A DNA stretch of 63,481 bases, counting the filler. It is 6 parts of 6 records of this genome, joined end to end, with 100 filler letters (N's around TTAATTAATTAA, not from the genome) between each part and the next. Parts side by side here need not be neighbours in the genome. Positions count along the whole stretch, not along the records: positions 13,483 to 28,156 come from SRR31156797_36893; 5 more parts are not named here. The stretch is one strand, 5' to 3'. Position numbers and translations under genes: made by a program. Of this stretch, positions 5,568 through 40,566 are shown in pieces. The notes beneath the pieces are model-generated. The model was not told the DNA's origin. It ran no database searches and saw only the letters and a list, made by a program, of their open reading frames with translations. The first letter of the stretch is position 1; the number at the start of each line of letters is the position of its first letter.

Positions 5568-5667
5568 NNNNNNNNNNNNNNNNNNNNNNNNNNNNNNNNN
5601 NNNNNNNNNNNTTAATTAATTAANNNNNNNNNNNNNNNNNNNNNNNNNNNNNNNNNNNNNNNNNNNN
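5568..5667. other. Artificial contig spacer (N-run with TTAATTAATTAA linker)
   Basis: 100-nt block; the same linker recurs five times; GC content and gene content change across it. Confidence 0.97.
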
Positions 5668-13382: not shown

Positions 13383-13482
13383 NNNNNNNNNNNNNNNNNN
13401 NNNNNNNNNNNNNNNNNNNNNNNNNNTTAATTAATTAANNNNNNNNNNNNNNNNNNNNNNNNNNNNNNNNNNNNNNNNNNNN
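13383..13482. other. Artificial contig spacer
   Basis: N-run with TTAATTAATTAA. Confidence 0.97.
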
Positions 13483-13510
13483 ATTGAACCGACGGCCTGC
13501 TGGTTACGAA
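13483..13510 (-). tRNA. 3' fragment of tRNA-Thr(CGT), probable att site (not an intact tRNA)
   Basis: Minus strand TTCGTAA-CCAGC-AGGCC-GTCGG-TTCAAT = anticodon loop, 3' anticodon stem, variable loop and T arm. The 5' anticodon stem and D arm are absent; an integrase gene is adjacent. Confidence 0.75.
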
Positions 13511-13628
13511 TCTCATCCCTCCCTGTTTTACTGGGCCCCACTAAGTTGTATTGTGTTGTAAATTCAACAGGTTGAATAAACCGTACTTTGTGGTAAGTTG
13601 TAACAAATTAGATAGTTTTTACTCCCTA

Positions 13629-13660
13629 GGGTAGCAATGGGGGTAGCAGCGAGGGTAGCA
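13629..13660 (+). repeat. Three GGGTAGCA direct repeats, 12-bp period (candidate integrase arm sites)
   Basis: Copies at 13629, 13641 and 13653 between the att core and the int start. Confidence 0.6.
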
Positions 13661-14764
13661 ATGAAAAGGAAGAAAAGTAAGTTCACCGGCGTGTACATGC
13701 GTGAGTCCAAAGACCGCAGATACAAGGGCAAGCCGGACATCTGTTTTGACGTAACTTTCAAAGAAGGATCACGCAAGCTCTGGCAGAAGGTCGGCTGGAG
13801 ATCAGAAGGGATCACTGCCGCCTACGCTTCCAAAGTCCGCGCTGAAATAATGCGCAAAGTCCGGCTGGGCATGGACGTCTCAACACCGAAGCCCATGACC
13901 TTCGGGCAGGCCTTTAAAGAATATGAAGAAAATCACCTGACCAGTCTCAAAAGCGGCGACCGGGTGACACGGCTGTATAATGCCAGACTAAAAGACGAAT
14001 TTGAGAACATAAAACTTAAAGACATCAGCACCATCATGCTGGAGAAATATAAAAACAGGCTGCTGGCTGAAGGACTGGCTCCGGCCACGGCAACACACTG
14101 CCTCGCAATCTTCAGGTCGGTCTTTAAGAAAATGGTTTCGTGGGGGAAATACAAAGGCGCGGTTCCCACAGATCAAATCGCCATGCCCAAAAAGGACAAC
14201 CGCCGCTTTCGTTTCCTCAAAAAAAGCGAAGCTGATGAATTGCTCAGCTCACTGCGGGCCAGAAGCGAAGACACCTACCTTATGGCACTGGCCAGCCTGC
14301 ACACCGGCATGCGCTTCGGAGAGATTGCCAGCCTGCGGGCAGAACACATAAGCCTGAGAGACGGCATGATCCGCATTGTTGATGGCAAGGGCGAAAGTTC
14401 CCGGACAGTCTTCATGACTACGGAGCTGCGCTACCAGCTCAGTCAAAGACACCTCAAAGCCGGAGAACTCATCTTCCCCAACCGGGACGGCAAAATCCGG
14501 CCCATGATATCAAAGAGCTTTCCGCGCACCGTGAAAGCCTTGGGGCTAAATGACGGCATAGCAGACAAGCGTGACCACGTTGTCTTTCACTCCCTGCGCC
14601 ACACCTTCGCTTCATGGCTGGTCCAGAACGGGACGCCTCTCTACACCGTGAGCGAACTTCTGGGACATTCTTCTCTGGAAATGACGCAACGGTATTCACA
14701 TCTGGCACCGGAAGTGCTCAAGGCTGCGGCTGCTTCTTTTGATCGGATTGTTGGGAATGGGTAA
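13661..14764 (+). CDS. Tyrosine recombinase/integrase
   Basis: HTGMRFGEI (R), DGKG (K), FHSLRHTFASW (HxxR), LGHSSLEMTQRYSH (H, Y). Confidence 0.95.
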   Translation: MKRKKSKFTGVYMRESKDRRYKGKPDICFDVTFKEGSRKLWQKVGWRSEGITAAYASKVRAEIMRKVRLGMDVSTPKPMTFGQAFKEYEENHLTSLKSGDRVTRLYNARLKDEFENIKLKDISTIMLEKYKNRLLAEGLAPATATHCLAIFRSVFKKMVSWGKYKGAVPTDQIAMPKKDNRRFRFLKKSEADELLSSLRARSEDTYLMALASLHTGMRFGEIASLRAEHISLRDGMIRIVDGKGESSRTVFMTTELRYQLSQRHLKAGELIFPNRDGKIRPMISKSFPRTVKALGLNDGIADKRDHVVFHSLRHTFASWLVQNGTPLYTVSELLGHSSLEMTQRYSHLAPEVLKAAAASFDRIVGNG

Positions 14765-14794
14765 ATAAAAAAAACAATTGTGATTCAAAATAAG

Positions 14795-14834
14795 CAATGG
14801 ATGGTCCACAAATAACTTTGTAGGCCATCCATTG
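14795..14834. terminator. Stem-loop after integrase
   Basis: caatggatggtccacaaa/tttgtaggccatccattg imperfect inverted repeat. Confidence 0.5.
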
Positions 14835-15205
14835 TCATCAACCCAACTTGTTGTTCATAAAATCTATTTTTTGAACATCAAAAACATTTATCCGCCATTC
14901 ATGAACATCAAAAAACTTCACGCCCCTCGGCGATGTTCAAAAGTTCCCTAAAAACATAAATCGCTGCACTTCTTCCGCTGGCTGCGCGCAACTCTCTAAA
15001 CATACCGCGCTCATTTAAAATAGACAAAATCCTGCGCCCAGTAGAGACAGATACATTAGGAATAGGCGATCTGGTTTAGAAAAAATCTATTTAGCACACC
15101 CTAACCATATCTATAGGGATAAAAATAAACCAAGTCCGACCAGCAAAATTTATTTACTCAAAATCATTATTCAGCAAGAATAGCTTTATCAGGAAGATTA
15201 AAACG

Positions 15206-15808
15206 ATGGACAACACAAATAAAAGCTTCTTTCATTCCGGCCTCTCTAACATGACCAAAAACCGGGCAATAGTGTTGCGGTTGGCGCAACAATACATCAA
15301 CGGCTTAATGGCCCCGTCAGCCACCTTGCTGGAATTGCAGCACCTCATGTATTTTATGCAGGAGGCAGGTAAAAAGTTAGAACTCAATTTTCACCAAGGG
15401 ATCTACGGTCCCTATGTAGATAATTTGCACTATCTGCTCAAGCAAATGGACTGCACCGTCACTACCGGGAACAGTGAGGACAACACAGCCAAAGAATCCA
15501 TTGAGTTCCACAAGACTGACAGCAACGATGCACTGACTTTTCTCAAAAAACACGAACAAACGCTATCCAACGTGGATAGAGTCGGTGATCTGATCGCCGG
15601 TTTTGAAACTCCTTACGGCATGGAAGTTCTTGCGACAGTGCATTGGCTTGTCTCCAAGGAAAACGCCAAGAATGTGGATGAAGTCTATTCCGGTGTACAA
15701 AACTGGAATGCCCGAAAGGCTAAAATGATTCAGCGAAGGCATGTAGAGATTGCTTACAACGCTCTTGCCAATAAAGAATGGATACAACCAGATCAACCGC
15801 CAATCTAA
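15206..15808 (+). CDS. DarG antitoxin C-terminal-domain-like protein lacking the macrodomain
   Basis: TLLELQHLMYFMQEAG..L.L.F..G.YGPY..NL and LIAGFETPYGMEVLATVHW match the recalled C-terminal half of DarG proteins. Confidence 0.72.
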   Translation: MDNTNKSFFHSGLSNMTKNRAIVLRLAQQYINGLMAPSATLLELQHLMYFMQEAGKKLELNFHQGIYGPYVDNLHYLLKQMDCTVTTGNSEDNTAKESIEFHKTDSNDALTFLKKHEQTLSNVDRVGDLIAGFETPYGMEVLATVHWLVSKENAKNVDEVYSGVQNWNARKAKMIQRRHVEIAYNALANKEWIQPDQPPI

Positions 15809-16083
15809 AAAACTTCCACCGAATTATCCTTAACGTACTGGACCAAATCCACCCTTCTGTACACGATCCTGCGACCAAGAGTGGAAAATCGCGGGCCTTC
15901 TCCATTACTGCGCCAGTGGTCCAGCGTATTCTTTTTCACTGTTAGAAAATCAGCGGCTTCTTGAACTGTAAGTGTCTCTTTCCGATTTAAAATTTCCAGC
16001 TCTACGACCGGCTTAAAAGCTTCTTCAATAGCCAGTCGAATGTTCTTCATATTTTTCTCTGAAATATCTTTTTCCAAAATCAC
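15805..16083 (-). CDS. Excisionase-like HTH protein
   Basis: LTVQEAADFLTVKKNTLDHWRSNGEGPRF..LGRRIVYRRVDL (HTH_17/Xis pattern). Confidence 0.85.
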   Translation of the reverse strand: MILEKDISEKNMKNIRLAIEEAFKPVVELEILNRKETLTVQEAADFLTVKKNTLDHWRSNGEGPRFSTLGRRIVYRRVDLVQYVKDNSVEVF

Positions 16084-16128
16084 TATCTAATTCTCCAAGC
16101 TTATTTCGTATTCCGACTCAACAAATCT

Positions 16129-16555
16129 TTGCTAATTTAGCAAGAATCTTTTACAAGCTCAAGAAAAAGATCGGCCCGTAGAATCAGTTTTGGATAGACA
16201 TCTATTTCAAAAGGCTAATTAGCGAAGTCTCTCTTGGACACGAAAAAAGAGGCTGGCAACATCCATCCTCAACACGCAAGCAGCTCGGACAGCTTCTGAA
16301 ACAGGCAAGCTCTGAGGTTTGCCAGTCGGGGAACACTCCCTGATTTTCCACCACTTAGACGGGGCAGTCTTTGTGTCGCCGTACATCAATCGTGCAAATT
16401 GCGTATGAGAAATCCCCTTCTCTACATATAGGCTTACAATCTCAGCCACCAAAGCCCGCTCAAATTCATTCCCATTATTTTCCATCATTCCTGACCATCT
16501 TAGTTAAAGATATTTCTTTGCTAAATTAGCGTTGACTAAAAATACTAATTTAGCA
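16129..16555. promoter_or_regulatory. Repeated palindromic operator GCTAAWTTAGC
   Basis: TTGCTAATTTAGCAA 16129-16143, GCTAAATTAGC 16520-16530, ACTAATTTAGCA 16544-16555; the last two flank a TTGACT -35 box. Confidence 0.6.
16219..16488 (-). CDS. Small XRE-like DNA-binding regulator
   Basis: EKGISHTQFARLMY HTH-like segment; divergent from traK. Confidence 0.6.
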   Translation of the reverse strand: MMENNGNEFERALVAEIVSLYVEKGISHTQFARLMYGDTKTAPSKWWKIRECSPTGKPQSLPVSEAVRAACVLRMDVASLFFRVQERLR

Positions 16556-16635
16556 TAAACCAACTCCATGTCAATCAGTCCAAACACACACCCAAACTAA
16601 ACGAGCAAAGGCTCCTTGAATTAATCAAGGTCACA

Positions 16636-16914
16636 ATGAAAAAGAAAAAAGGTTTCGCAAAAATTGAATTCATCGCCAATCTTGAGGAAATAAAAGCTCT
16701 CCACAAAAGCGGCTTTAATAAAAAAATGATTCACGAGCACTTGCTTGGAAAAGGCAAAATAACAATGAGTTACGCAATTTTTTGTTCATACACCTTTGAC
16801 GGGGGTCGTCGAAAAAAACAAAGCAAACCCAAACGCCCTGCCCTCACACAGGAAGACAGGCCTTTCGTACACAAGAGCATCATAACCAAAGAAGATTTGG
16901 ATGAGTTGATTTAG
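16636..16914 (+). CDS. traK: TraK-family (IncP-type) oriT-binding protein
   Basis: AKIEFIANLEEIKAL..GF.KKMIHEHL..KGKITMSYAIFCSY pattern; relaxosome context. Confidence 0.65.
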   Translation: MKKKKGFAKIEFIANLEEIKALHKSGFNKKMIHEHLLGKGKITMSYAIFCSYTFDGGRRKKQSKPKRPALTQEDRPFVHKSIITKEDLDELI

Positions 16915-16974
16915 AAATGCCTTCTTGGCAGCACCCCAAGGAAATCCCCTAAACCTTTAGCAGCACTTAATTTT

Positions 16975-18534
16975 ATGACTTCAGAGGAACACAAATGCCC
17001 CTCCCGTAAACCGGACAATTGCGACGATAAGCAGCAATTTCAAACGAGTGCGGGTTATTCACGGGTACTTATCCGGCTCAAGTTGAACAAATTCTACAGA
17101 TCCCTTTCATACACAGCAAAAAACATAATCGCAGTTCTCATCCAGTCCGCACCGGCAATGGAAAAACCGTTTCCCATTGTTATTTCCAACCTTCAGCACG
17201 CAGCCGGATGCAGCAAAGCAAGCATTTTGCGCCATATCCCTAAAGGAGAACAAGCCGGACTTTATGAACGCAAAAACCATGACGCAGGGCGCAAGCACGG
17301 AAGCATCGTCACGCTGAACAAAGAACTCTGCGAGCGATTCCTTGAACTTCATTCACAGGAATACGGCCAATCCGCCAACACCAATAATGAATCATATTTC
17401 ATTCTATTTGATGGCAGCAAAGATCAATGCGGCCAAGCCTTGGATCTGGAAAACAAAACCGACCTATTTTTCTCCAGTTTATCCAATACGGAGAAACGTA
17501 TATTCGCTGTAATTTCAAAGCTTGCAGAAGATGTCCCTAGCGGGAAAATCCATCTTATAATTAAAGACGTTGCCGAACAGACATCTTGCAGTGAAGTGAC
17601 CGCCCGTCGGACAGTTAAGCGCGGCCAAGAAAGCGGCCTTTACGCCAAGAGACAACATGAACGCGGCCCCCGTTTCGGTGTAATCCTCAAGCTAAATGTT
17701 AAGCCCATGGAACGCATGAAAGAACTGCTGCAAACGTTCCCGGCAAAAGCTGATCAGTATCAATCCGACATAACCGAACATGATCGGATTCATGAGCAAA
17801 ATGAAACTGATCATGCAACCAGACTTGATCGGAATCATTTCAGCAGTGATCCTGCGCAGGCAAAACACCCCCTCAACCCTTGTCAGTCAGGGGGTGGCAG
17901 CAATTCAGTTCCGCGCTCTGACACTCAAAACGATCGGTATCACGAGCATCTTCTATTAGATAGACAGATAGAAAATCTATCTAACGCTGAAGAAAAATTC
18001 AGTGCGCGAAGGTTGCTGGAGATCAATGCGGAGGATTTCGAAATCCACTGGCCCAGACTCCACGAACACAAATTTGGGCCAAATCAGATTCGCCAGATTG
18101 TGAACCACCGGGTTGCAGGGGGCGAAACTCTTCTCGACATCAAGAACTCACTCTATGCCGCTGAATGGGAATTAGAACGCGAAACCTTTCCCAAAAACCG
18201 CAAAGGCCCGTGCAATTATCTTTTCGCCACCCTGAAGGACACAGGCACATGGCGCAGGCCGGTCGGCTTTCTCTCGCCCAACGAACAGGCACTTGCCAAC
18301 GCAAAAAAAGAAAAGGGCGTAGTCCGTGCGCTTGCAGAACAGAAAAAACAGCAGGCAAAAAAGGAGACACAAGCAAAATCAGACAAAAAGTTTGAAGCAT
18401 GGCTCGCCACACAGACACCTGAAGCACTGGCGGCGATTGATGCGCGATGTACCGTGCCGCCCAGCACCGAGGAGTCCAGACGTAGATGGCGGAGGGTTTA
18501 CTGGGGGAAAAATATTTATCGGGAGGAGGCGTAA
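16975..18534 (+). CDS. Putative replication initiator with two tandem winged-helix repeats
   Basis: Two similar units (F..SLS.T.K.I.AV...CS.....R....G...GLY.....G..G....LN), a low-complexity linker containing DNA repeats, and a helical C-terminus. Confidence 0.55.
   Translation: MTSEEHKCPSRKPDNCDDKQQFQTSAGYSRVLIRLKLNKFYRSLSYTAKNIIAVLIQSAPAMEKPFPIVISNLQHAAGCSKASILRHIPKGEQAGLYERKNHDAGRKHGSIVTLNKELCERFLELHSQEYGQSANTNNESYFILFDGSKDQCGQALDLENKTDLFFSSLSNTEKRIFAVISKLAEDVPSGKIHLIIKDVAEQTSCSEVTARRTVKRGQESGLYAKRQHERGPRFGVILKLNVKPMERMKELLQTFPAKADQYQSDITEHDRIHEQNETDHATRLDRNHFSSDPAQAKHPLNPCQSGGGSNSVPRSDTQNDRYHEHLLLDRQIENLSNAEEKFSARRLLEINAEDFEIHWPRLHEHKFGPNQIRQIVNHRVAGGETLLDIKNSLYAAEWELERETFPKNRKGPCNYLFATLKDTGTWRRPVGFLSPNEQALANAKKEKGVVRALAEQKKQQAKKETQAKSDKKFEAWLATQTPEALAAIDARCTVPPSTEESRRRWRRVYWGKNIYREEA
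17751..17984 (+). repeat. Iteron-like YGATCRGWWTCA repeats inside the rep-like gene
   Basis: Copies at 17751, 17781, 17826 and 17931, followed by the inverted repeat ttagatag...ctatctaa (17956-17984). Confidence 0.55.
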
Positions 18535-18700
18535 GTAGTCATCCCTATAGCCCTACCCCCATATTTCCATTTTCCGGCCCTGAATTTTGATACTTCTTGA
18601 TAAATTTTGATTCACTTTGAAATTATTCTCAAAGATCGTCAATTATGCGCAAAGATTGCCAAACACCTTCCGCAAGCACTAGAAATATCATACTTTATCA

Positions 18701-18813
18701 CGGAATCCGAAGGCAGGACAGGTAAGGTAGTGCCACTTTTTTCAAAGTGTTCTCCCTTACGTCCTGCGCAGCCTGAGCGACGATTAACTTATTCACCTTC
18801 GGTTCAACGCAAA
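18701..18813 (+). other. RP4-like oriT / traJ-II-like structured element, copy 1 (predicted nick on minus strand between 18713 and 18714)
   Basis: Minus strand CTACCTTACCTGTCCTG^CC resembles RP4 nic CTACTTCACCTATCCTG^CC; lies upstream of rha-traJ-traI. Confidence 0.75.
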
Positions 18814-18881
18814 TTGTTTAAGAAATTGAGACCAGCTCAATTTTGAGCTGACATTAACTGCAAACAAAACAGGATAAATCA

Positions 18882-19697
18882 ATGACCCAAAAAGCTAATA
18901 AAAATAATGAAATGTCGGATGCCGTCGAATTGGTTATGGAAAACGATAAGCCGATGGTTTCATCTTTGGTAGTGGCTGAGTTGTTTGAAAAACGGCATCA
19001 CAACGTTCTCAAATCAATAAGCGATCTAGAAATTCCCGATTCATTTAGAGCCCTGAATTTTCAGGCGTCCTCGTATGCAAGTAAACAGAACAAGAAAATG
19101 CCATCTTTCAACATGACCCGTGATGGATTTTCCCTTTTAGCCATGGGATTTACCGGCAAGAAAGCCACAGAATGGAAAATCAAATTCCTTGAAGCTTTCA
19201 ATGCCATGGAAAGGAAGCTGACGATTCCACAGGTTGAGGCAAATTTTCAAATTAAGAAGGCAACTCCAGAAGCAATCAAATCCTTTGAAGGGTTTGCCCG
19301 CTATTGGTGTTATCTTGAAAAATTTAGTTGGGAACAAGGCAAACGACAGATTGAAGCTGCAATCAGAGTTCCCGACATTTATGAGATGGACGCGTTAGCA
19401 TTGAACAGTGCTTGGACCTATATTACTCTTTGCACAAGAATCGTTCCGCCTAAAATGCGTGGGTTGAATGTCTGTTCTGAAGAAGAGCTGTCTCCGGTTA
19501 TAGGGCTGTTGGATTACTGGTCATACAGCACCAGCAATTCAAAAGATGAGCTGGAATCCAATTTCTGCAAGCGCATGGGAATTGATGCGCTGGAACAATT
19601 GCCAAAGTCATATCTTCCGCATGCAGTGAGTCTTGCTTGGGAAAACATTCATTTTGAAACAGGTAAATGTCGTGCCGTCAAAGAAGCGAATCATTAA
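18882..19697 (+). CDS. Rha family phage-type regulatory protein with duplicated C-terminal module
   Basis: SSLVVAELFEKRHHNVLKSI...MTRDGFSLLAMGFTGKKATEWKIKFLEAFNAME is the Rha signature. Confidence 0.88.
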   Translation: MTQKANKNNEMSDAVELVMENDKPMVSSLVVAELFEKRHHNVLKSISDLEIPDSFRALNFQASSYASKQNKKMPSFNMTRDGFSLLAMGFTGKKATEWKIKFLEAFNAMERKLTIPQVEANFQIKKATPEAIKSFEGFARYWCYLEKFSWEQGKRQIEAAIRVPDIYEMDALALNSAWTYITLCTRIVPPKMRGLNVCSEEELSPVIGLLDYWSYSTSNSKDELESNFCKRMGIDALEQLPKSYLPHAVSLAWENIHFETGKCRAVKEANH

Positions 19698-19989
19698 AAC
19701 CTACGTTTCAGACGATGAGTACATAGAGATCAGCGAGACTGCGCAGCAGTGCAGTCTTTCTCTGTCTGCTTTTGTTAAGGCCGTATCGTTGGGACATGAA
19801 ATTAGAAGCAGCACCGACCAGCAGGCCCGCCGGGAACTTTTGAAGCTCAATGCAGATCAGGGCCGCTTGGGCGGCTTGTTAAAAATGATGATTCTGGACG
19901 ATGACACGAATCGAGTAAAAGCGGAGAGGCTGCTTGAGGACATTCGTCGGCTTCAGGGCAGACTAATGCAGAAGGTGAGAACCGTATGA
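19672..19989 (+). CDS. traJ: TraJ/MobC-type relaxosome accessory protein (RHH); GTG start inferred
   Basis: SLSAFVKAVSLGHEI...RELLKLNADQGRLGGLLK resembles RP4 TraJ; ATGA overlap with the relaxase. Confidence 0.82.
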   Translation: MPSKKRIIKTYVSDDEYIEISETAQQCSLSLSAFVKAVSLGHEIRSSTDQQARRELLKLNADQGRLGGLLKMMILDDDTNRVKAERLLEDIRRLQGRLMQKVRTV

Positions 19990-21611
19990 TCAGCCGAAGG
20001 ATTGCTTGCAAGCCCCAGAACGACAATTACCGCCGACTCGCAGTATACATTGCCGATGCCAAGCACAAAGGCGAAAAGAGTTTGATGTCGTGGTGTGCTG
20101 GCTGCTGGGCCGGTGATGATTACGAACTGGCCATTCAAGAAGTGCTCGATACTCAGGATCTGAATAAGCGCACCCGCAAGGAAAAGACTTACCATCTAAT
20201 CGTGTCCTTCAGACCGGAAGATGAGACCACCCTTACACCGGAAACTTACAAAGAGATTGAGCAGGGGTTCTCCAAGGCTCTGGGCTTTGAAGAACACCAG
20301 CGGCATTGCGGGGTTCATAAAAACACGAACAACCTGCACATGCATATCGCCTACAACATGATTCACCCGGAGACTTTGACCCGTCACGAACCTTACCGTG
20401 ATTTCTACAAGCGCGATCAGTTGCACCGCGAACTGGAGCAGAAGTACGGCTTGAGAGTTGATAACGGCAGGCAAAAGGAAGGCAACCCCAAACGCACAAA
20501 TGATCGAGCTGCCAGCTTCGAGGCTCATTCCGGCCAGCAGTCTTTTGATTCATATATAAAGGAACGCAAGGATTTCATTTTGGAGTCCTTGCGCTCCGCG
20601 CAAAACTGGCAATCCTTTCATAAAGCCTTGGCGCAAATCGGCATCGAGATCCGGCTGCGCGGCAATGGATGCATCCTTAAAGACCTTCATTCCAAAACGG
20701 CCATCAAAGCCAGCAGCCTCGACCGAGATTTCTCCAAGCCCAAACTGGAAGCCAAGCTTGGCAAATTTCAAAAGCCCTTCGATTTCAAGGTGGAAGAAAA
20801 AGAGCGATACATCTCAAGGCCGCTGCACAAATATCGCGGAGAACTATACGCCGAGTACCGCACGGCCATCGAAGCCAGAAAGAAAGCCTACGAGACCCTG
20901 AAAGAAGATCAGGATGCCCGCTGGAAGAAAATCACTACATTCTGGGATGATAAATTAAAGAGAACAAAAAATGACTCCCAGCTCCGCCCCAAAGACAAGG
21001 CCCGCTTGATTGCTTTGGCGATAGATAGAAAAAGCCACGAGGTCGAATTATTCAAAAAGGAAATAGCCGAAAAGCGTGCAGTCCTGCGTGAACAAACACC
21101 ATTCAGCAGATGGAACGATTTTCTGAAATGGAAGGCCGAAAACGGGGATGAAGTTGCGCTCAAAATTCTGCGGTCGAAGAAAGTATCCATCACATCTGTT
21201 CCTAAGGCGGAAGAAAGCAGTCGTAAAACCAAGCTTTCAACTTTGAAGCGTAAACAAGGCCAAATCAGAAGGGATTCCACCTTCGTCTGGAAAGACAAAC
21301 GCAGGCTGCTGTCCATTTCCAAAATGCTGCAATTGCAAGCTAAGGAATCCAACCGAAAGACTGGCGGCGATGAACAAAGTGTCATGGCCGGAATGACTTG
21401 GCGTGTGGATTCGTCCGGCAATGTCCTATACACGCTGAAGAACGGGGCTATGGTTAAAGACAATGGCGATAAGATTTTCTTCAGCGTGGGTGATTCCAGT
21501 GCGGAGCGGGTTGCGCTGGAGCTGGGGCGGATGATGTTCGGGATGAAGGCTAAGGTGTCCGGGAATGTGATTAAGCGGGGGTGGAAGAAAATTGCGTTGA
21601 ACCGAAGGTGA
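19986..21611 (+). CDS. traI: MOBP (TraI-type) conjugative relaxase
   Basis: RLAVYIAD (catalytic Tyr), TYHLIVSF, HKNTNNLHMHIAYN 3H motif. Confidence 0.92.
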   Translation: MISRRIACKPQNDNYRRLAVYIADAKHKGEKSLMSWCAGCWAGDDYELAIQEVLDTQDLNKRTRKEKTYHLIVSFRPEDETTLTPETYKEIEQGFSKALGFEEHQRHCGVHKNTNNLHMHIAYNMIHPETLTRHEPYRDFYKRDQLHRELEQKYGLRVDNGRQKEGNPKRTNDRAASFEAHSGQQSFDSYIKERKDFILESLRSAQNWQSFHKALAQIGIEIRLRGNGCILKDLHSKTAIKASSLDRDFSKPKLEAKLGKFQKPFDFKVEEKERYISRPLHKYRGELYAEYRTAIEARKKAYETLKEDQDARWKKITTFWDDKLKRTKNDSQLRPKDKARLIALAIDRKSHEVELFKKEIAEKRAVLREQTPFSRWNDFLKWKAENGDEVALKILRSKKVSITSVPKAEESSRKTKLSTLKRKQGQIRRDSTFVWKDKRRLLSISKMLQLQAKESNRKTGGDEQSVMAGMTWRVDSSGNVLYTLKNGAMVKDNGDKIFFSVGDSSAERVALELGRMMFGMKAKVSGNVIKRGWKKIALNRR

Positions 21612-21704
21612 ATAAGCCGCTCTCAGCCTCAAGGCTAAGCAGGACGTAAGGGACACCACGTTGAAAAAGTGGGCCTACCTTACCTGTCCTGCCTTCGGAC
21701 TCCG
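21592..21704 (-). other. RP4-like oriT / traJ-II-like element, copy 2, inverted relative to copy 1 (predicted nick on plus strand between 21691 and 21692)
   Basis: Plus strand GTGGGCCTACCTTACCTGTCCTG^CC; its reverse complement aligns with 18701-18813 over about 110 nt. Confidence 0.75.
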
Positions 21705-21916
21705 GGAGAGTATAATGGATTTTGCTAGATTCGGGCAAGCGTTCAAAAAAAATATACAATAATCTTGAATAGTAAATTATATTAAATAAAAATAAAGCAT
21801 AATTAAGCATTGCAAATATTTATTTTACTTTCACGATGACAAACTTGCTAATCTTGACATGATTTGATTTCTATAGCACTAAACTTTCATCATCGAAACA
21901 GGGACGACCCTGTTGG

Positions 21917-21976
21917 TAGCCAATTACCGAGGACGACCTCATAAAAGATCGTCCTCGGTAATTGGCTATTTTTTTT
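21917..21976 (+). terminator. Strong intrinsic terminator upstream of nrfH
   Basis: 20-bp perfect inverted repeat tagccaattaccgaggacga/tcgtcctcggtaattggcta followed by T8. Confidence 0.8.
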
Positions 21977-22088
21977 GGGGTTTGACTGAAGTGTAATCTC
22001 ATACTGTTCGCAGTAAGACTCATGAAAGTATCTAAAAAAGCACTTTAGTGTGTACCAAGTCAACATTTAGTACTAAAGGAGTGAAAAT

Positions 22089-22613
22089 GTGGTTTCAAAA
22101 ATATTGAGTGCTTTCTCATTAGGCTTTGTAACTATAGCAATATGTATTGGATTGTATGTTGCCTACTCATCAAAGGCCTTAACATACCTTTCTGGCGACT
22201 CAAAATATTGCATAAACTGCCATGCAATGAACACACAATACGCAACTTGGAAAAAAAGTTCACATGCATTAAATGCAGAATGTGTTGATTGCCACCTTCC
22301 GCATGACAATATAATTTTAAAATATATGGTGAAGGCTGAGATAGGTGCTCATGATGTAGTTGCATTTACTAAAAATGATTATAAAAATTCGATATCAATT
22401 ACTAAGAAAAGTGAAGCTAGAGTCCAGAACAACTGTATCAGGTGTCATGGCAAAGCTGTTGAACGATTAATGTTTAATAGCATTGGTCAATGCGAAGATG
22501 AGACTGTCTCTATGGGGAGAAAGTGCTGGAGTTGTCACAATCGCATCGCGCACGGAAAGACTAGGGGTTTAGCTACAATGTCCAATGACCTTACAGTAAA
22601 AGAGGGAAACTAA
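22089..22613 (+). CDS. nrfH: Tetraheme membrane-anchored quinol dehydrogenase, NrfH family
   Basis: N-terminal TM; CINCH, CVDCH, CIRCH, CWSCH; directly upstream of an NrfA homolog. Confidence 0.9.
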   Translation: MVSKILSAFSLGFVTIAICIGLYVAYSSKALTYLSGDSKYCINCHAMNTQYATWKKSSHALNAECVDCHLPHDNIILKYMVKAEIGAHDVVAFTKNDYKNSISITKKSEARVQNNCIRCHGKAVERLMFNSIGQCEDETVSMGRKCWSCHNRIAHGKTRGLATMSNDLTVKEGN

Positions 22614-22614
22614 A

Positions 22615-24159
22615 ATGAAAAAAGGCATCATCATTATAGTCAGTTCAATTGCAATTGCCGTTGCGCTGCTGTGGTTGGCTTTAGATATCAACACCAAAAA
22701 AATTGAAAAAGTAGCGCTGACAACCGTAGAAGGAGAACCTTCAGATCCGGCAAAAAGTTCTACGTGGAAACAGTTATATCCACGACAATATGAAACGTGG
22801 GCGAGCACCAAGAAGAACTCGGAATGGGAGGATATGATTGAAACAACTCCTGAGCAAGTTATTATGCGGGCTGACCCATATAGCCCAACAGGCCCAGAGC
22901 TCTTAAATATTCGTGGGCACTACTATTCCGTGATAGACTTTCTTACTGCAGATGGTTCAGGAATCCCTTCTAAAAATAGAAAAGACGACACAACCTCTAG
23001 GTGCTTGCGGTGTCACACCTCAAACGCGCGTGGATTGATGGAGCGTGATGGTAAAATGGAATTTCTTTCTAGCTCCTGGACCAAATATGGCAATGAAGCA
23101 TTGAACCCTATTGGATGTGTCAACTGTCATGATCCCAAGACAGCAAAATTGCGAATGGGCCCCACCGGAGTAGACGAAATGCTTACTGCGGCAGGATTAC
23201 CGGATTTCGACCATTCTTCACATCAAGAAAAAAGAGCCTTGATTTGTGCTCAATGTCATTTTGAAGCATACACTGAAAAAATTAGCTGGAAAGATAAAAA
23301 AGGCAACAGCAGAGAGGCTACCGTAACGAGAACGCCATGGAAGAATGGGTTTACTTTGGACGACATGGAGCGCTTTTACGATGATGGAAGCAACTTCTCG
23401 TCCGGCAAGCCTTACTACGATTTCATTCACCCAATATCAAAAACTCCAATAATATTCTCAGAACATCCAGACTATGAGCTTTTCAAGCAAGGCACACATG
23501 GGAAAAATGGGCTTGCTTGTGCAGATTGCCATATGCCGTACAAACAAGAAGGCGGAGTGAAGTTTACAGATCATAAAATTGGATCTCCTCTGGATACGAT
23601 AGATAGAACATGTCAAACCTGTCATCGCAAGAAAGAACAATATTTTAAAGATGCTGTAGCGGAAAAGAGAAAACGTAAAGAGGTATTGGCTAACATCGCC
23701 ATGAAGAACCTCACTAAAGCACACTTAGAAGCGGGTAAAGCTTGGGAAGCGGGAGCGACAGAAGAGGAAATGGCTCCAGTCTTGGCGGATATAAGGAGCT
23801 CTTTCTGGAAATGGAATTCAGTCGCAAGGGCTGCCTATTTCCATGCTCCTGAACAGACATTGAAAGCCTTGGCTGATTCAAACAACAAAGCCCAAAGCGC
23901 CAGATTGGCTTTGTCAAGCATCCTTGTCAAACATGGGATCACCAACTACATCGCACCTGAATTTAAAACTAAAGAAGAGGCACTTTCTATCCTGAATATC
24001 CCTAATCGGAGGGAATATATGCAGGAAAAATGCAAATTCTATGAAACGCTGGCTAAAAAATGGATTGAAGAAGGCAAAGCCAACGGAACATACGATGAGG
24101 ATATCAGCTATCCAGTGAACATGGAAAGCCGTTATACAAAGGAATGCCAGCAGAGATAA
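22615..24159 (+). CDS. Pentaheme cytochrome c552 (NrfA-fold) with non-canonical active site
   Basis: Five CXXCH motifs (CLRCH, CVNCH, CAQCH, CADCH, CQTCH); scaffold motifs RGHYY, HQEKR.L.CAQCH, ISKTP, CADCHMPY.QEG, FHAPE as in Wolinella-type NrfA. Confidence 0.88.
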   Translation: MKKGIIIIVSSIAIAVALLWLALDINTKKIEKVALTTVEGEPSDPAKSSTWKQLYPRQYETWASTKKNSEWEDMIETTPEQVIMRADPYSPTGPELLNIRGHYYSVIDFLTADGSGIPSKNRKDDTTSRCLRCHTSNARGLMERDGKMEFLSSSWTKYGNEALNPIGCVNCHDPKTAKLRMGPTGVDEMLTAAGLPDFDHSSHQEKRALICAQCHFEAYTEKISWKDKKGNSREATVTRTPWKNGFTLDDMERFYDDGSNFSSGKPYYDFIHPISKTPIIFSEHPDYELFKQGTHGKNGLACADCHMPYKQEGGVKFTDHKIGSPLDTIDRTCQTCHRKKEQYFKDAVAEKRKRKEVLANIAMKNLTKAHLEAGKAWEAGATEEEMAPVLADIRSSFWKWNSVARAAYFHAPEQTLKALADSNNKAQSARLALSSILVKHGITNYIAPEFKTKEEALSILNIPNRREYMQEKCKFYETLAKKWIEEGKANGTYDEDISYPVNMESRYTKECQQR

Positions 24160-24181
24160 CTAGTCAAAGAAATAATAATAT

Positions 24182-24214
24182 GAGGGCCTATCCAAGCATA
24201 TGAGATAGGCCCTC
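24182..24214 (+). other. Intergenic stem-loop after the nrfA-like gene
   Basis: gagggcctatc/gataggccctc 11-bp stem with no U-tract. Confidence 0.5.
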
Positions 24215-24279
24215 GCTATAACAAAATCAGCAAGTTGGTGACAGATCGAAAGTGATCATGCAACGAATAGGAGAGTGTA

Positions 24280-24774
24280 GTGTTTAGAGAAATGCGTCGA
24301 AAAAAACAAATGTTGTCAGTAGAAGAATGTGTTGCTGTACTTGAAAGAGGGACTTCGGGTGTTTTAGCAGTATTGGGAGATGAAAATCACCCATACGCAG
24401 TTCCGCTTAGTTACGTATATCACAAATCAAAAATATTCTTTCACTGTGCAAAGTATGGCCATAAATTAGATGCTATTTCAAATAGCAATAAATCTTCATT
24501 TTGCGTGATAGATAAAGATAAGATCATTCCCGATGAGTACACTACATATTTTCGCAGTGTTATTGCTTTTGGAAAAACACGTATCCTTCAAGATAAATTA
24601 GAAAAAAGAAATGCGTTGAAAAAACTAGCCAAACGCTATTCACCAAAACATGAAAAAGGAAGTTTAGATGAGATTGATAAACTCTTTGAAAAGGTTTTTG
24701 TTTTAGAATTAAGCATAAAACATATGACAGGCAAACAAGCAATTGAATTGCTAAATAATAATTCATCAAAATAA
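24280..24774 (+). CDS. Nim-like 5-nitroimidazole reductase family protein (PNPOx fold)
   Basis: MFREMRRKKQ.L, PYAVPLSYVY, HCAKYGHKLDAI, EYTTYFRSVIAFGK closely follow recalled Bacteroides Nim proteins. Confidence 0.8.
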   Translation: MFREMRRKKQMLSVEECVAVLERGTSGVLAVLGDENHPYAVPLSYVYHKSKIFFHCAKYGHKLDAISNSNKSSFCVIDKDKIIPDEYTTYFRSVIAFGKTRILQDKLEKRNALKKLAKRYSPKHEKGSLDEIDKLFEKVFVLELSIKHMTGKQAIELLNNNSSK

Positions 24775-24821
24775 GCTAGAACCACTACATTCTATTTGTA
24801 AAAATATAACTGGATGTTAAA

Positions 24822-26273
24822 ATGCACCATATTGATTTTCCTACTTATAGAGGCAGCATGGAATATTTTTGTCTTGGCTGCAACTCCCGCTTTCCAATCG
24901 ATGAGTTGTACTATACCTGCCCAAAATGCGGCGGGGTCTTTTTGTTAGAAGACAATTCCTTTGATTTGCTAAAAAGATACCCTGGTCAAAGGTGGCGTGA
25001 CCTGTTTGATTCAAGGGCAATGACTAAAGAGACGACTCTACGCGGTATTTTTCGATTCTATGAACTCATGGCTCCAGTACTCGATCAACAAGATATTGTT
25101 TACTTAGGAGAAGGACATTCCCCTATCGTAGATTTTTCCCATTCGTTACGCAGCGAGTTGGATGGCCAGATGGGTGCTTATAAAAACGAAGGACAGAACC
25201 CCAGCGCATCTTTCAAAGATCGTGGAATGGCTTGTGCGTTCAGTTTTTTGAACAACCTTAGTCGAACCAAAAGTTTTGACAATATTCTAGCTGTTTGCGC
25301 CTCTACTGGTGACACCAGCGCGGCTGCGGCTTTATATGCTTCTTACGCGGGAAAACGCGTCAAATCTGTGGTTCTTTTACCCCAAGGCAAAGTCACGCCG
25401 CAGCAGTTAGCTCAGCCCTTGGGAAGCGGAGCTCAAGTTCTTGAAATTCCCGGTTTTTTTGATGACTGCATGAACGTTGTTGAGTACCTTGCTGATAACT
25501 ATCACGTTGCCCTTCTCAACTCCAAAAACGCATGGCGAATCCTCGGGCAAGAGTCTTACGCCTTTGAAATCGCCCAATGGTACGGCTGGGACTTAGAGGG
25601 CAAATGTGTATTTATTCCAATTGGCAATGCCGGCAATATTACCGCTATTATGGCCGGTTTTTTGAAGCTTTACCATTTAGATATTATTAATAAACTCCCT
25701 AGAATTTTTGGAGTGCAATCCCACCATGCCGATCCGGTCTACCGCTATTATGCCGTCGATGACCCTAAAGAACGTCATTTTAAGCCGGTGAAAGTTCAAC
25801 CTAGTGTGGCCCAGGCCGCCATGATAGGTAAGCCGGTATCCTTTCCCCGCGTGCGATATTTCGTTGAGCAATATGAGGCTATTGGCGGCAAACAGTCTTT
25901 TCAAGTTGTTCAAGTTGCAGAACAGGACATCATGGATAGTATGCTCCAGGCCAATCGTAATGGACATATAGTGTGCACCCAGGGGGGGGAATGTTTGGCT
26001 GGCCTGAAACGCGCACGGCAACTTGGGATAATCGACGAAAAAGAAACCGCAATCCTTGACTCAACAGCACACATGCTTAAGTTTATTGGGTTCCAAGACA
26101 TGTATTTTAGCAACACTTTCCCGTTTGAGTATGGAGTTACCCCTGATGCACAAAAAGCTAACACCCCTCATCTGATTATTGAAGAGCGGGAAAAGACTTT
26201 TTTATCTGCGGAAGAATACACAATAAAAACGGCTGAGAATATTGTTACAATGCTTGGACTAGCTAAAAAATAG
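24822..26273 (+). CDS. thrC: Threonine synthase
   Basis: KNEGQNPSASFKDRGM (PLP lysine), CASTGDTSAA, PIGNAGN; N-terminal CxxC..CxxC. Confidence 0.9.
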   Translation: MHHIDFPTYRGSMEYFCLGCNSRFPIDELYYTCPKCGGVFLLEDNSFDLLKRYPGQRWRDLFDSRAMTKETTLRGIFRFYELMAPVLDQQDIVYLGEGHSPIVDFSHSLRSELDGQMGAYKNEGQNPSASFKDRGMACAFSFLNNLSRTKSFDNILAVCASTGDTSAAAALYASYAGKRVKSVVLLPQGKVTPQQLAQPLGSGAQVLEIPGFFDDCMNVVEYLADNYHVALLNSKNAWRILGQESYAFEIAQWYGWDLEGKCVFIPIGNAGNITAIMAGFLKLYHLDIINKLPRIFGVQSHHADPVYRYYAVDDPKERHFKPVKVQPSVAQAAMIGKPVSFPRVRYFVEQYEAIGGKQSFQVVQVAEQDIMDSMLQANRNGHIVCTQGGECLAGLKRARQLGIIDEKETAILDSTAHMLKFIGFQDMYFSNTFPFEYGVTPDAQKANTPHLIIEEREKTFLSAEEYTIKTAENIVTMLGLAKK

Positions 26274-26320
26274 CAAAGTGAGGAAACGCAAGAGATAAAA
26301 CACTATAGTTTCCTTCTCTA

Positions 26321-27001
26321 TCAGAACAAAGCGGTTAATACAACTGCATAGACCAAAGCAGGGAGAAAGTTGGCAAGATTGATCTCCGTCAAGTGTAACA
26401 GATTAACTCCGATCCCCATGACAAGCACCCCGCCGCACGCAGTAACCTGTATAATCATAGGATCTGAAAATGACTGCTGAAAGCCTTCTGCACCAAGAGT
26501 CAAACTTCCTTGGTACAACAAAACGGGAAGAAATGAATATATAACTCCTGCCCCATATGAGGCAGCCAGCGCGATGGAAGCAAAACCATCAAGAATGGAC
26601 TTTGTGTAAAGTATGGTTGGATCACCATTTATACCTTCCTCAAGCGAACCGATAATAGCCATGGCCCCAACACAAAAGGTAAGCGATGCCATAATAAATC
26701 CGTCAGTAAAGTATTCATTCTTGGATTTAATAACCTTTTTGAACTCATTGCCTATTTTCTCGAACAAGGTATCGAGCTGCAAAATCTCGCCAGTGACACC
26801 ACCAACCATAATGGCAAAAATAACGGCTAAAATATCTTCGTTCTTCAGTGCCATCTGGATGCCTATCACTAGCATGCAAAGGCCAAGACCCTGAAACACA
26901 ATACCTTTAAATCGTTGAGAAAATCTAGATTGCAGCCCGCAGCCGATGACTGAGCCCCCGATTATAGCAAAAACATTGACTATGGTTCCAGTTGGAATCA
27001 T
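26321..27001 (-). CDS. DUF554/YdfK family membrane protein
   Basis: GTIVNVFAIIGGS, FCVGAMAIIGSLEEG, LYTKSILDG. Confidence 0.85.
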   Translation of the reverse strand: MIPTGTIVNVFAIIGGSVIGCGLQSRFSQRFKGIVFQGLGLCMLVIGIQMALKNEDILAVIFAIMVGGVTGEILQLDTLFEKIGNEFKKVIKSKNEYFTDGFIMASLTFCVGAMAIIGSLEEGINGDPTILYTKSILDGFASIALAASYGAGVIYSFLPVLLYQGSLTLGAEGFQQSFSDPMIIQVTACGGVLVMGIGVNLLHLTEINLANFLPALVYAVVLTALF

Positions 27002-27159
27002 TACTTATCTCCTAATAATTTTTATACGGACTAGTGTCTTCGACATCCACGGATAATTTCTTCTAAGTATATTCCTAAATTAGCTGAAATGTCCTTGCAA
27101 TGTGCCAATAAATTAACAAACGAAATGCAACAATCTTTCAAAATAACACAAAAAAATAA

Positions 27160-27633
27160 ATGAATGGTTCAATGATGACTTTGGACGATAAAGATAAAGT
27201 GCTTTTACGCCTGTTGCAAAACGACGGCAGGATGAGCAATGCCAAAATGGCAGAACACCTATCAATAAGTGAATCCTCGTGCTGGCGCAGGCTGAAACGC
27301 CTTTTGGACAATGGCTTTATAATAGGTTTTCAAGCCGTGCTAGATAGAAAGGCAACAGGATTCGACGTACTTTCTTTTGTGCAAATCAGTTGCAGTCAAC
27401 ATTCAGAGGAAGCGACAGCCCAGTTCAAACGAATTATAAGGGCATCGCCGAATGTTCTCTCCTGCCATAACACAACAGGGGATGACGACTTCCTGCTTCA
27501 AGTAGTTGCAAAAGACTTAGATGATTACAACGATTTCGTTGAAGGAGTACTCCGAAAGATACCTGGAGTGGTAAACCTTCGTTCCAACATATCGCTACAA
27601 GAAGTCAAATTACCCCACCTGTTGCCGTTATAA
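27160..27633 (+). CDS. Lrp/AsnC family regulator
   Basis: LDDKDKVLLRLLQNDGRMSNAKMAEHL.IS...CWRRLKRL; TGDDDFLLQV. Confidence 0.92.
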   Translation: MNGSMMTLDDKDKVLLRLLQNDGRMSNAKMAEHLSISESSCWRRLKRLLDNGFIIGFQAVLDRKATGFDVLSFVQISCSQHSEEATAQFKRIIRASPNVLSCHNTTGDDDFLLQVVAKDLDDYNDFVEGVLRKIPGVVNLRSNISLQEVKLPHLLPL

Positions 27634-27891
27634 TGACGCAATAAATATCACAGTACACTTCAAGTCACCAAAAAGTTTTTGATATGTCAAATTACACTCT
27701 CTTACAGTCTACAGAACAGCTCGTTTGACTTTAGTCGGCCCATTATAAGTAAAACAGCTGACGTTTTTTTTGTACAAACAGTTTTGAATGTTTAGTCGAT
27801 TTCTTTTGCTATAGAGCTTTGAAAGGATACAAATTTCAGGTAAACTTATATTTATCTGTGTTGAATTTCACATACAAAGGGATAGTTTTTT

Positions 27892-28156
27892 ATGAGAAAG
27901 TTCTATGAAGGTAAATTAGTGCGGAAGGCTATTGTTTTGGTTCTTGCTTTTAGCTTTGCAGGTGTGCTTGTTGTCTTTTATTTTTATTTCAATTCGTTGG
28001 ATGATTTAGCTACTGAAAACATGCGCCAAAGAGTTATGGTTGCCTTAAATGTTGAAGCTAGTATTCAGCAGGAAATCCTTGAAGAATATACATTTTGGGA
28101 CGAAGCATATGAAAATTGCATTGTTAATGTAAATAATGACTGGATTTCTCTTAATA
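27892..28156 (+). CDS. Membrane sensor protein N-terminus (CHASE4-like), truncated by contig edge
   Basis: TM helix followed by EYTFWDEAYE. Confidence 0.55.
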
Positions 28157-28256
28157 NNNNNNNNNNNNNNNNNNNNNNNNNNNNNNNNNNNNNNNNNNNN
28201 TTAATTAATTAANNNNNNNNNNNNNNNNNNNNNNNNNNNNNNNNNNNNNNNNNNNN
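28157..28256. other. Artificial contig spacer
   Basis: N-run with TTAATTAATTAA. Confidence 0.97.
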
Positions 28257-34254: not shown

Positions 34255-34354
34255 NNNNNNNNNNNNNNNNNNNNNNNNNNNNNNNNNNNNNNNNNNNNTT
34301 AATTAATTAANNNNNNNNNNNNNNNNNNNNNNNNNNNNNNNNNNNNNNNNNNNN
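34255..34354. other. Artificial contig spacer
   Basis: N-run with TTAATTAATTAA. Confidence 0.97.
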
Positions 34355-40466: not shown

Positions 40467-40566
40467 NNNNNNNNNNNNNNNNNNNNNNNNNNNNNNNNNN
40501 NNNNNNNNNNTTAATTAATTAANNNNNNNNNNNNNNNNNNNNNNNNNNNNNNNNNNNNNNNNNNNN
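40467..40566. other. Artificial contig spacer
   Basis: N-run with TTAATTAATTAA. Confidence 0.97.

Follow-up and report, generated by a model that had tools for sequence, protein, structure and literature searches.

Introduction

Plasmids of the IncX group (R6K type) have long inverted repeats that hold two origins of transfer (oriTs), one of which lies close to the relaxase gene, an arrangement that the account in PMC3402527 gives as characteristic of the group, and in ICEclc two regions act as oriT with one relaxase, as reported from experiment in PMC5812530. Here we describe a pair of inverted oriT-type units on an assembled contig (SRR31156797_36893) that occupies positions 13483-28156 (14,674 nucleotides, nt) of a longer stretch of DNA; this stretch, 63,481 nt of joined contigs, is the window to which all positions refer. 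The two units, each of about 133 nt (copy 1, 18694-18826, plus strand; copy 2, 21578-21711, minus strand), form an inverted repeat that brackets three mobilization (mob) genes: rha, a TraJ/NikA-like gene and traI, which encodes a MOBP relaxase. We favour, with reasonable though far from complete confidence, the view that a sister element was the source of copy 2, an oriT that was either captured or left behind and that is now fused, in inverted orientation, to the 3′ end of traI, as a one-off mosaic.

The mob module resembles that of the IncP plasmids (RP4/RK2): in both, the relaxase is of the TraI_MobP_relax type, a TraJ/NikA-like gene lies directly upstream of it and the oriT lies upstream of that gene in turn, and the nick region of the window element is close to the RP4 oligonucleotide given in PMC3772185. 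The window element differs from IncP in its GTCCTG core, in the order of its conserved blocks and in the presence of rha between the oriT and the traJ-like gene; it also has an integrase, and mating-pore genes were not seen on the contig. With IncX it shares two inverted oriT units on one element, one of them near the relaxase gene, but here the pair is not conserved in relatives (0 of 100), the copies come from different lineages and origin function is predicted. ICEclc is likewise an integrated element with more than one oriT and one relaxase, although it belongs to another element family, and the second origin in the window is predicted only. A further comparison is with relaxase-mediated recombination between oriTs, described for NikB of R64, TrwC and MobA, in which the oriTs have the same orientation and the intervening DNA is deleted (as set out in PMC4902927). 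The likeness lies in an orphan, full-scoring oriT without a relaxase of its own in one related genome (L136) and in the NikA-like accessory protein; the difference is that the window pair is inverted.

The comparisons reported here define an oriT/relaxase module of IncP-like type that is widespread among the mobilizable elements of Desulfovibrionaceae and is made up of a promoter, nick site, covarying hairpin, inner block, optional rha, traJ-like gene and traI; the module is shuffled as a unit and leaves many relics. The inverted second origin would be a concrete case of a two-origin element arising by capture and, if copy 2 is used, neighbouring genes could be exported in the manner of high-frequency-recombination (Hfr) strains. 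As this is a single instance on one contig, with function predicted, its interest is mainly for annotation and comparison.

Sequence data and search sets

The window consists of separate contigs joined by linkers of the form N44-TTAATTAATTAA-N44 (5568-5667, 13383-13482, 28157-28256, 34255-34354 and 40467-40566), so features on opposite sides of a linker have no physical linkage; the analysis concerns the contig at 13483-28156. Relatives of the relaxase were gathered as 129 loci: 48 from species-representative genomes, 80 from metagenome contigs and one, distant, from a viral contig. The 48 genome loci are mostly from Desulfovibrionaceae, with a few metagenome-assembled genomes labelled otherwise, and the closest are from Maridesulfovibrio, at about 70% protein identity.

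A covariance model of the oriT family was built from an alignment of the units of 46 relatives that included neither window copy; also omitted were L035, whose alignment was poor, L054 and two additional genome cut-outs, L136 and L138. For searches downstream of the relaxase gene, 105 of the 129 loci include the C-terminal part of traI, 100 of them with at least 300 nt of downstream sequence and 93 with at least 1 kb.

The inverted repeat and its two oriT units

The inverted repeat lies where a sequence-only reading of this DNA had placed it, and a repeat search resolved it into three arm pairs: 18698-18741 with 21664-21707 (44 nt, 91% identity), 18738-18774 with 21632-21668 (37 nt, 86%) and 18788-18815 with 21589-21616 (28 nt, 96%). 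Three blocks had been claimed to be identical in the two copies, with all differences confined to the segments between them, and so they are. The 24-nt block CCGAAGGCAGGACAGGTAAGGTAG (18707-18730, plus strand; 21675-21698, minus strand) and the 25-nt block CTTATTCACCTTCGGTTCAACGCAA (18788-18812, plus strand; 21592-21616, minus strand) each occur exactly twice in the window, once per strand, and two matches arose in 0 of 100 shuffles for either; the third identical block is 15 nt long. Overall, the copies are 81.7% identical over a 113-nt core and 77% over the full units of 133 and 134 nt (105 of 136 alignment columns), and the longest exact run common to both is 25 nt.

The units face outwards, as had been proposed: CTACCTTACCTGTCCTGCC belongs to the minus strand in copy 1 and to the plus strand in copy 2. 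The predicted fold-back pairs (CCGAAGG/CCTTCGG, GCAGGAC/GTCCTGC and GTAAGG/CCTTAC) were found in the DNA folds of both copies, for which single-stranded fold z-scores were -3.9 (copy 1) and -1.9 (copy 2), against -7.6 and -4.9 for the oriTs of two relatives. Copy 2 runs into the relaxase gene, the last seven codons and stop codon of which lie inside it: homology of traI to its relatives stops at about 21572-21578, and the remaining codons and the stop come from copy 2. The resulting TraI has 541 amino acids (aa), compared with 537-542 aa in relatives, in all of which the last ten or so residues are variable.

When the window was searched with the family model, copy 1 scored 105.3 bits (E 1.5e-31) and copy 2 101.7 bits (E 2.1e-30), in agreement with the earlier proposal that both are complete oriT-type units of an IncP/MOBP-like family; no other match in the 63 kb exceeded 13 bits, and the weak ones are palindromic overlaps of the two copies. 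Across the family, 97.9% of cells in the hairpin pair and compensatory changes occur in 7 of 13 pairs, values reached by none of 500 shuffles, and slid controls gave pairing in 27-52% of cells. By this measure of covariation, the family hairpin is under selection.

The sequence-only reading had further called the copies traJ-II, which the Rfam traJ-II model (RF01760) did not bear out: the scores are 18.5 bits for copy 1 and 18.4 bits for copy 2 (E about 6), below the threshold of 40. The traK-traJ intergenic oriT of an IncP control plasmid scored 109.5 bits with the traJ-II model and 14.5 bits, at the same place, with the family model. The window family is nonetheless a relative of the IncP/RP4-type oriT, having in common with it a nick region with an inverted-repeat arm and a block of the form CTTATTCGC...CTCAACG; the traJ-II score is just 18 bits or so because these shared blocks stand in a different order. 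At the protein level, the relaxase is at most 36% identical to the TraI proteins of a plasmid collection, and a DNA search of the same collection gave matches limited to short stretches of rha.

PMC3772185 lists the RP4 nick oligonucleotide in its Table 2, where it equals the string quoted in the earlier comparison with RP4, and gives the MOBP nick consensus as (C/T)ATCCTG(C/T). Both copies carry TGTCCTGC after the hairpin, in agreement with that published consensus at seven of eight positions; the core is GTCCTG here, against ATCCTG in RP4/MOBP, and ATCCTG is present in five of the relatives. Homology with RP4/MOBP places the predicted nick of copy 1 at 18714/18713 (minus strand) and that of copy 2 at 21691/21692 (plus strand, GTCCTG^CC). 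With nicks in both, transfer would start leftwards from copy 1, with the minus strand, and rightwards, toward nrfHA, from copy 2, with the plus strand.

Occurrence among related elements

A single oriT upstream of the traJ-like gene is the normal state in this family, as had been supposed for MOBP elements: 106 of the 129 relaxase loci have a plus-strand match to the family model. An inverted oriT after traI was found by the same model in none of the 100 loci with the end of traI and at least 300 nt beyond it, the weak minus-strand matches in relatives all overlapping the canonical upstream copy. The nearest traI 3′ ends with downstream flank, those of L061 (87% DNA identity) and L134 (86%), have no copy 2. 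Comparison of the upstream 2.6 kb with the downstream 1.5 kb gave no inverted repeat longer than 18 nt at any of the 43 testable genome loci, the other five being too short in their flanks. The 15-nt nick-core motif, with up to two mismatches allowed, is present at 47 relaxase loci as a single copy, which precedes the traJ-like gene and has the same orientation; a single copy is also found in L054 (genome G004), a locus found through the flank of copy 2 and not through its relaxase. In this motif scan of the loci, two nick-core motifs, inverted, are seen in the window alone.

Among the ten closest genome loci, the shared block extends exactly from the oriT unit to the end of traI, with about 100 nt more upstream in some pairs, and the flanks are otherwise unrelated. 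The orientation of the mob module relative to the integrase gene (L005) or to the gene for a 519-aa protein (L007) also differs from that in the window. Relics and mosaics are common in the family. The orphan oriT of genome G004 (L136, 9385-9518; 102.5 bits with the family model) adjoins a truncated rha, with a type I-C CRISPR-Cas operon on one side of the locus and BREX-like and restriction-specificity genes on the other; there is no traJ-like gene or relaxase gene within about 8 kb. At L046 (5066-8795), traI breaks off after about 130-156 aa, and a P4-like integrase gene, a DUF5338 gene and a second, direct oriT come immediately after it, which suggests that one element has inserted into the relaxase gene of another. 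L040 (682-6778) has a second oriT, inverted, at a distance of 4.3 kb upstream; in addition, a weak match to traI in reverse (40 aa, E 9e-6) abuts a truncated forward traI, which suggests modules lying tail to tail. L111 has a weak second copy in direct orientation.

Both of the closest relatives at the junction of the 519-aa gene with the mob genes have lost the nick region of copy 1, by different deletions. One is a metagenome contig (X2, record 4) with 57 differences in 1,596 nt across the 519-aa gene (about 96% identity) and 110 in 1,186 nt across rha and nikA (about 91%); in it, the 195 nt corresponding to 18596-18790 are replaced by 16 nt. In L059, which is 94% identical in the 519-aa gene, 18527 is joined to 19148 in the middle of rha and 18528-19147 is missing. 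Taken over the relatives compared, the arrangement in the window looks like a one-off mosaic and not a family design.

Provenance of copy 2 and its flank

Over the core, copy 2 is 91.2% identical to the oriT of L002 and 86.8% identical to those of L001, L006 and L008, and copy 1 is 83.5% identical to that of L002. Copy 2 also matches the oriTs of L058 (90.8% over 120 nt) and L060 (93.8%, over 65 nt only). Its homology to the oriT regions of other elements continues to 21806, through about 100 nt of promoter flank (21709-21806, minus strand), and 21586-21806 is 83% identical over 221 nt to L054, an orphan oriT locus of genome G004. Because copy 2 is closer to the L002 oriT (91%) than to copy 1 (82%) and is accompanied by foreign flank, a sister element is its apparent source; judged by these affinities, it is a foreign (sister-lineage) oriT and not a duplicate of copy 1. 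A derived base shared by the two copies was considered as a sign of gene conversion between them and rejected, the same variant being present in L054, L056 and L058.

The sequence-only reading had itself named absence from related elements, derivation from a separate element and misassembly as outcomes that would tell against its interpretation of the second copy. The first two largely describe what was found, with no such copy at 100 related loci and an affinity to sister elements, but misassembly is unlikely.

A promoter scan called a promoter-like site in the flank of copy 2 (TTGCCC, 18 nt, TATACT; minus strand, 21738 to 21709), the -10-like box of which is conserved among relatives, and called no site at the homologous position beside copy 1. 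Copy 1 is without the conserved -10-like box and without a second hairpin that relatives retain, and copy 2 is nearer to the family consensus. In the orientation usual for the family, the promoter-like site would read through the oriT into the mob genes; in the window, that of copy 2 would read leftwards, antisense to traI. The conserved -10-like box of the family (corresponding intervals 18660-18700 and 21709-21738) sits immediately beyond the nick site and is directed into the mob operon. Transcription from it would place the oriT hairpins in the 5′ leader of the mob mRNA, which may be the reason why Rfam models the IncP version as an RNA motif.

Proposed history and alternative explanations

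In the history that we favour, the element, which is of the integrase type and has the order int, xis-like gene, DUF5338 gene, gene for the 519-aa protein, promoter and oriT, rha, traJ/nikA-like gene and traI, has copy 1 as its own oriT in the normal position. Copy 2 would have come, as a complete unit of promoter and oriT, from a sister lineage within the family, and a recombination or accretion event would have joined it, inverted, directly to the 3′ end of traI; the mob genes that formerly followed it would since have been lost. The joint could have formed when two modules were juxtaposed tail to tail and then suffered a deletion, or when an incoming module replaced the resident mob genes. 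The nick region (25 nt), the covarying hairpin and the inner block (25 nt) are all unaltered in copy 2, so that nicking by the resident TraI/NikA-like pair is probably still possible; use of copy 2, or transfer from it, is a matter of prediction. Several points weigh against this history. The joint coincides exactly with the inner boundary of an intact oriT unit and with the point at which traI normally ends, which is tidy for a random rearrangement, and copy 1 is the more aberrant copy, with no second hairpin and no promoter call. Given that the nick region of copy 1 is deleted in both the X2 contig and L059, copy 2 could be the working origin of this lineage. None of the relatives compared exceeds about 90% identity in the relaxase, and the ends of the element were not located, so that copy 2 could sit inside or outside it and nrfHA could be cargo or chromosome.

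A working two-origin system maintained by selection, as in IncX, would have one relaxase serve both oriTs, so that either strand could be sent and, when the element is integrated, the flanking DNA of either side could lead. Both units do score as full oriTs with identical nick and inner blocks, and IncX and ICEclc are precedents as described in PMC3402527 and PMC5812530, but we consider such a system unlikely here, given that the arrangement occurs at none of the 100 related loci, that the copies belong to different lineages and that copy 2 folds worse than the oriTs of relatives (z -1.9 against -4.9 and -7.6). We think it quite improbable, too, that an origin replacement is under way, with copy 2 in use and copy 1 decaying: the missing second hairpin and -10-like box of copy 1, the loss of its nick region in the X2 contig and L059 and the closeness of copy 2 to the consensus would all fit, yet copy 1 scores slightly higher (105.3 against 101.7 bits) and folds better (z -3.9 against -1.9), and L061 and L134 lack a downstream copy.

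That the repeats make the rha-traJ-traI segment an invertible or portable cassette, as the sequence-only reading had also suggested, seems very unlikely. The block conserved among relatives does run exactly from oriT to the end of traI between unrelated flanks, and the module is found in either orientation relative to the integrase or 519-aa gene (window against L005 and L007). However, with 77-82% identity and exact runs of at most 25 nt, the arms are ill suited to homologous recombination, the relaxase-mediated reaction set out in PMC4902927 takes place between two oriTs of like orientation and removes the DNA that separates them, and none of the 43 testable genome loci has flanking repeats; a single isomer is present in assembled contigs, which cannot show rare flipped forms. 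We give least credence, and very little, to a chimera in which the assembler joined two elements at the repeat. The assembly is fragmented and the contig begins within a repeat-like fragment, but with about one position in five differing between the copies and no exact shared run above 25 nt there would be no long exact repeat at which to misjoin them. An assembled contig of the same length (14,674 nt) from one run, probably the source of the window, covers 17000-24500 with no differences, at even depth and with no joint at the repeats, although it is not independent evidence.

A stronger proposition than capture is that the resident TraI/NikA-like pair nicks both origins in vivo, so that the excised element could send either strand and the integrated element could lead chromosomal DNA out both ways, including the nrfHA operon with its guanidine-II riboswitch-like leader. 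We hold this to be rather doubtful. If true, capture of a sister origin would have created de novo, in an integrative mobilizable element of IncP type, a two-origin layout like that of IncX, and the recurrent loss of copy 1 in sister elements would reflect a conflict between two facing origins.

Gene content and ends of the element

The gene set of the contig (integrase, xis-like gene, oriT, traJ-like gene and traI) fits an integrative mobilizable element. The integrase, a tyrosine recombinase (13637-14764, plus strand; Pfam Phage_integrase, 116.8 bits), is followed by an open reading frame (ORF) of 200 aa with no assigned family (15206-15808, plus strand) and by a gene for an excisionase-like helix-turn-helix (HTH) protein (15805-16083, minus strand; Pfam HTH_17, 43 bits; a weak match to Tn916-Xis; PHROG 66, excisionase/regulator). 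Next come a DUF5338 gene (16636-16914, plus strand; Pfam DUF5338, 35.6 bits), homologues of which adjoin the oriT in relatives L030, L033 and L046, and the gene for the 519-aa protein (16975-18534, plus strand). The latter had been labelled rep in the sequence-only reading; it could be placed in no known family, with only weak HTH matches (HTH_36, 17.1 bits against a cut-off of 25), a weak match to PHROG 1368 and none in NCBIfam.

Downstream of copy 1, which holds the canonical position and is collinear with the single oriT of relatives, the mob operon starts with rha, for a Rha-family regulator (18882-19697, plus strand; Pfam Phage_pRha, 99.9 bits), an optional member that is missing from L005, L009, L010, L056, L058 and L060. 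The gene directly upstream of the relaxase gene encodes a TraJ/NikA-like ribbon-helix-helix relaxosome accessory protein (19633-19989, plus strand; Pfam NikA-like, 58.7 bits against a cut-off of 27), which scores 72.3 bits with the NCBIfam TraJ equivalog, under the cut-off of 134. TraI itself is a full-length MOBP relaxase (19986-21611, plus strand; NCBIfam TraI_MobP_relax, NF041893, 490.5 bits against a cut-off of 250) that also matches Pfam Relaxase (109.8 bits) and TraI_middle (101.3 bits). No domains of a type IV secretion system or coupling protein were found among the ORFs scanned on 13483-28156, a scan that did not take in every small ORF.

At its left end, the contig starts with a fragment that, read by eye, resembles the 3′ part of a tRNA (13483-13520, minus strand), with an anticodon-loop-like TTCGTAA followed by T-arm-like and acceptor-like parts. 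The fragment is homologous to 10236-10292 of L005, where it adjoins a 76%-identical integrase gene and the order beside that gene is the tRNA-like fragment and then a terminator-like hairpin. It is a probable attachment-site half beside the integrase gene. ARAGORN called no tRNA anywhere in the window or at 19 loci, nor was the fragment called as a tRNA or tmRNA by any program, and Rfam gave nothing relevant; no second copy of the fragment occurs in the window, and its 21-nt core pattern, present once in genome G006 and three times in genome G009, is never within a called tRNA. Synteny gave no boundary for the right end of the element. There, beyond nrfHA, the contig carries genes for a PNPOx-like protein, a pyridoxal phosphate (PLP)-dependent enzyme, a DUF554 protein and an AsnC-type regulator (24280 onwards, mixed strands), and it ends within an ORF. 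Homologues of the PALP gene, 70% identical, occur in all five Maridesulfovibrio genomes with differing neighbours, and those of nrfA, just 42% identical, in two of the five.

A riboswitch-like leader of nrfHA

To the right of copy 2 and its flank lie nrfH and nrfA, for cytochrome c nitrite reductase (22089-24159, plus strand; Pfam Cytochrom_NNT, 60.3 bits, and Cytochrom_C552, 379.9 bits). Upstream of nrfH (22089), a match to the guanidine-II (mini-ykkC) riboswitch (21896-21940, plus strand; RF01068, 38.4 bits against a threshold of 32) overlaps a terminator hairpin with a U run, and the whole segment (21896-21976) folds as RNA at -49.1 kcal/mol (z -8.2). The second hairpin of the riboswitch match forms part of the 5′ arm of a long hairpin, nearly perfect and with the U run behind it, so that the segment looks like a ligand-controlled terminator before the nrfHA nitrite reductase genes. 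No guanidine-II-like element was found at the two Maridesulfovibrio nrfA loci (42% identity), and the top-ranked full-text literature matches on such riboswitches and nrfA nitrite reductase contain neither riboswitch name (guanidine-II or mini-ykkC). The riboswitch-like element is a neighbour of the oriT pair and not part of it; with a nick in copy 2, nrfH and nrfA would come first in the leading DNA.

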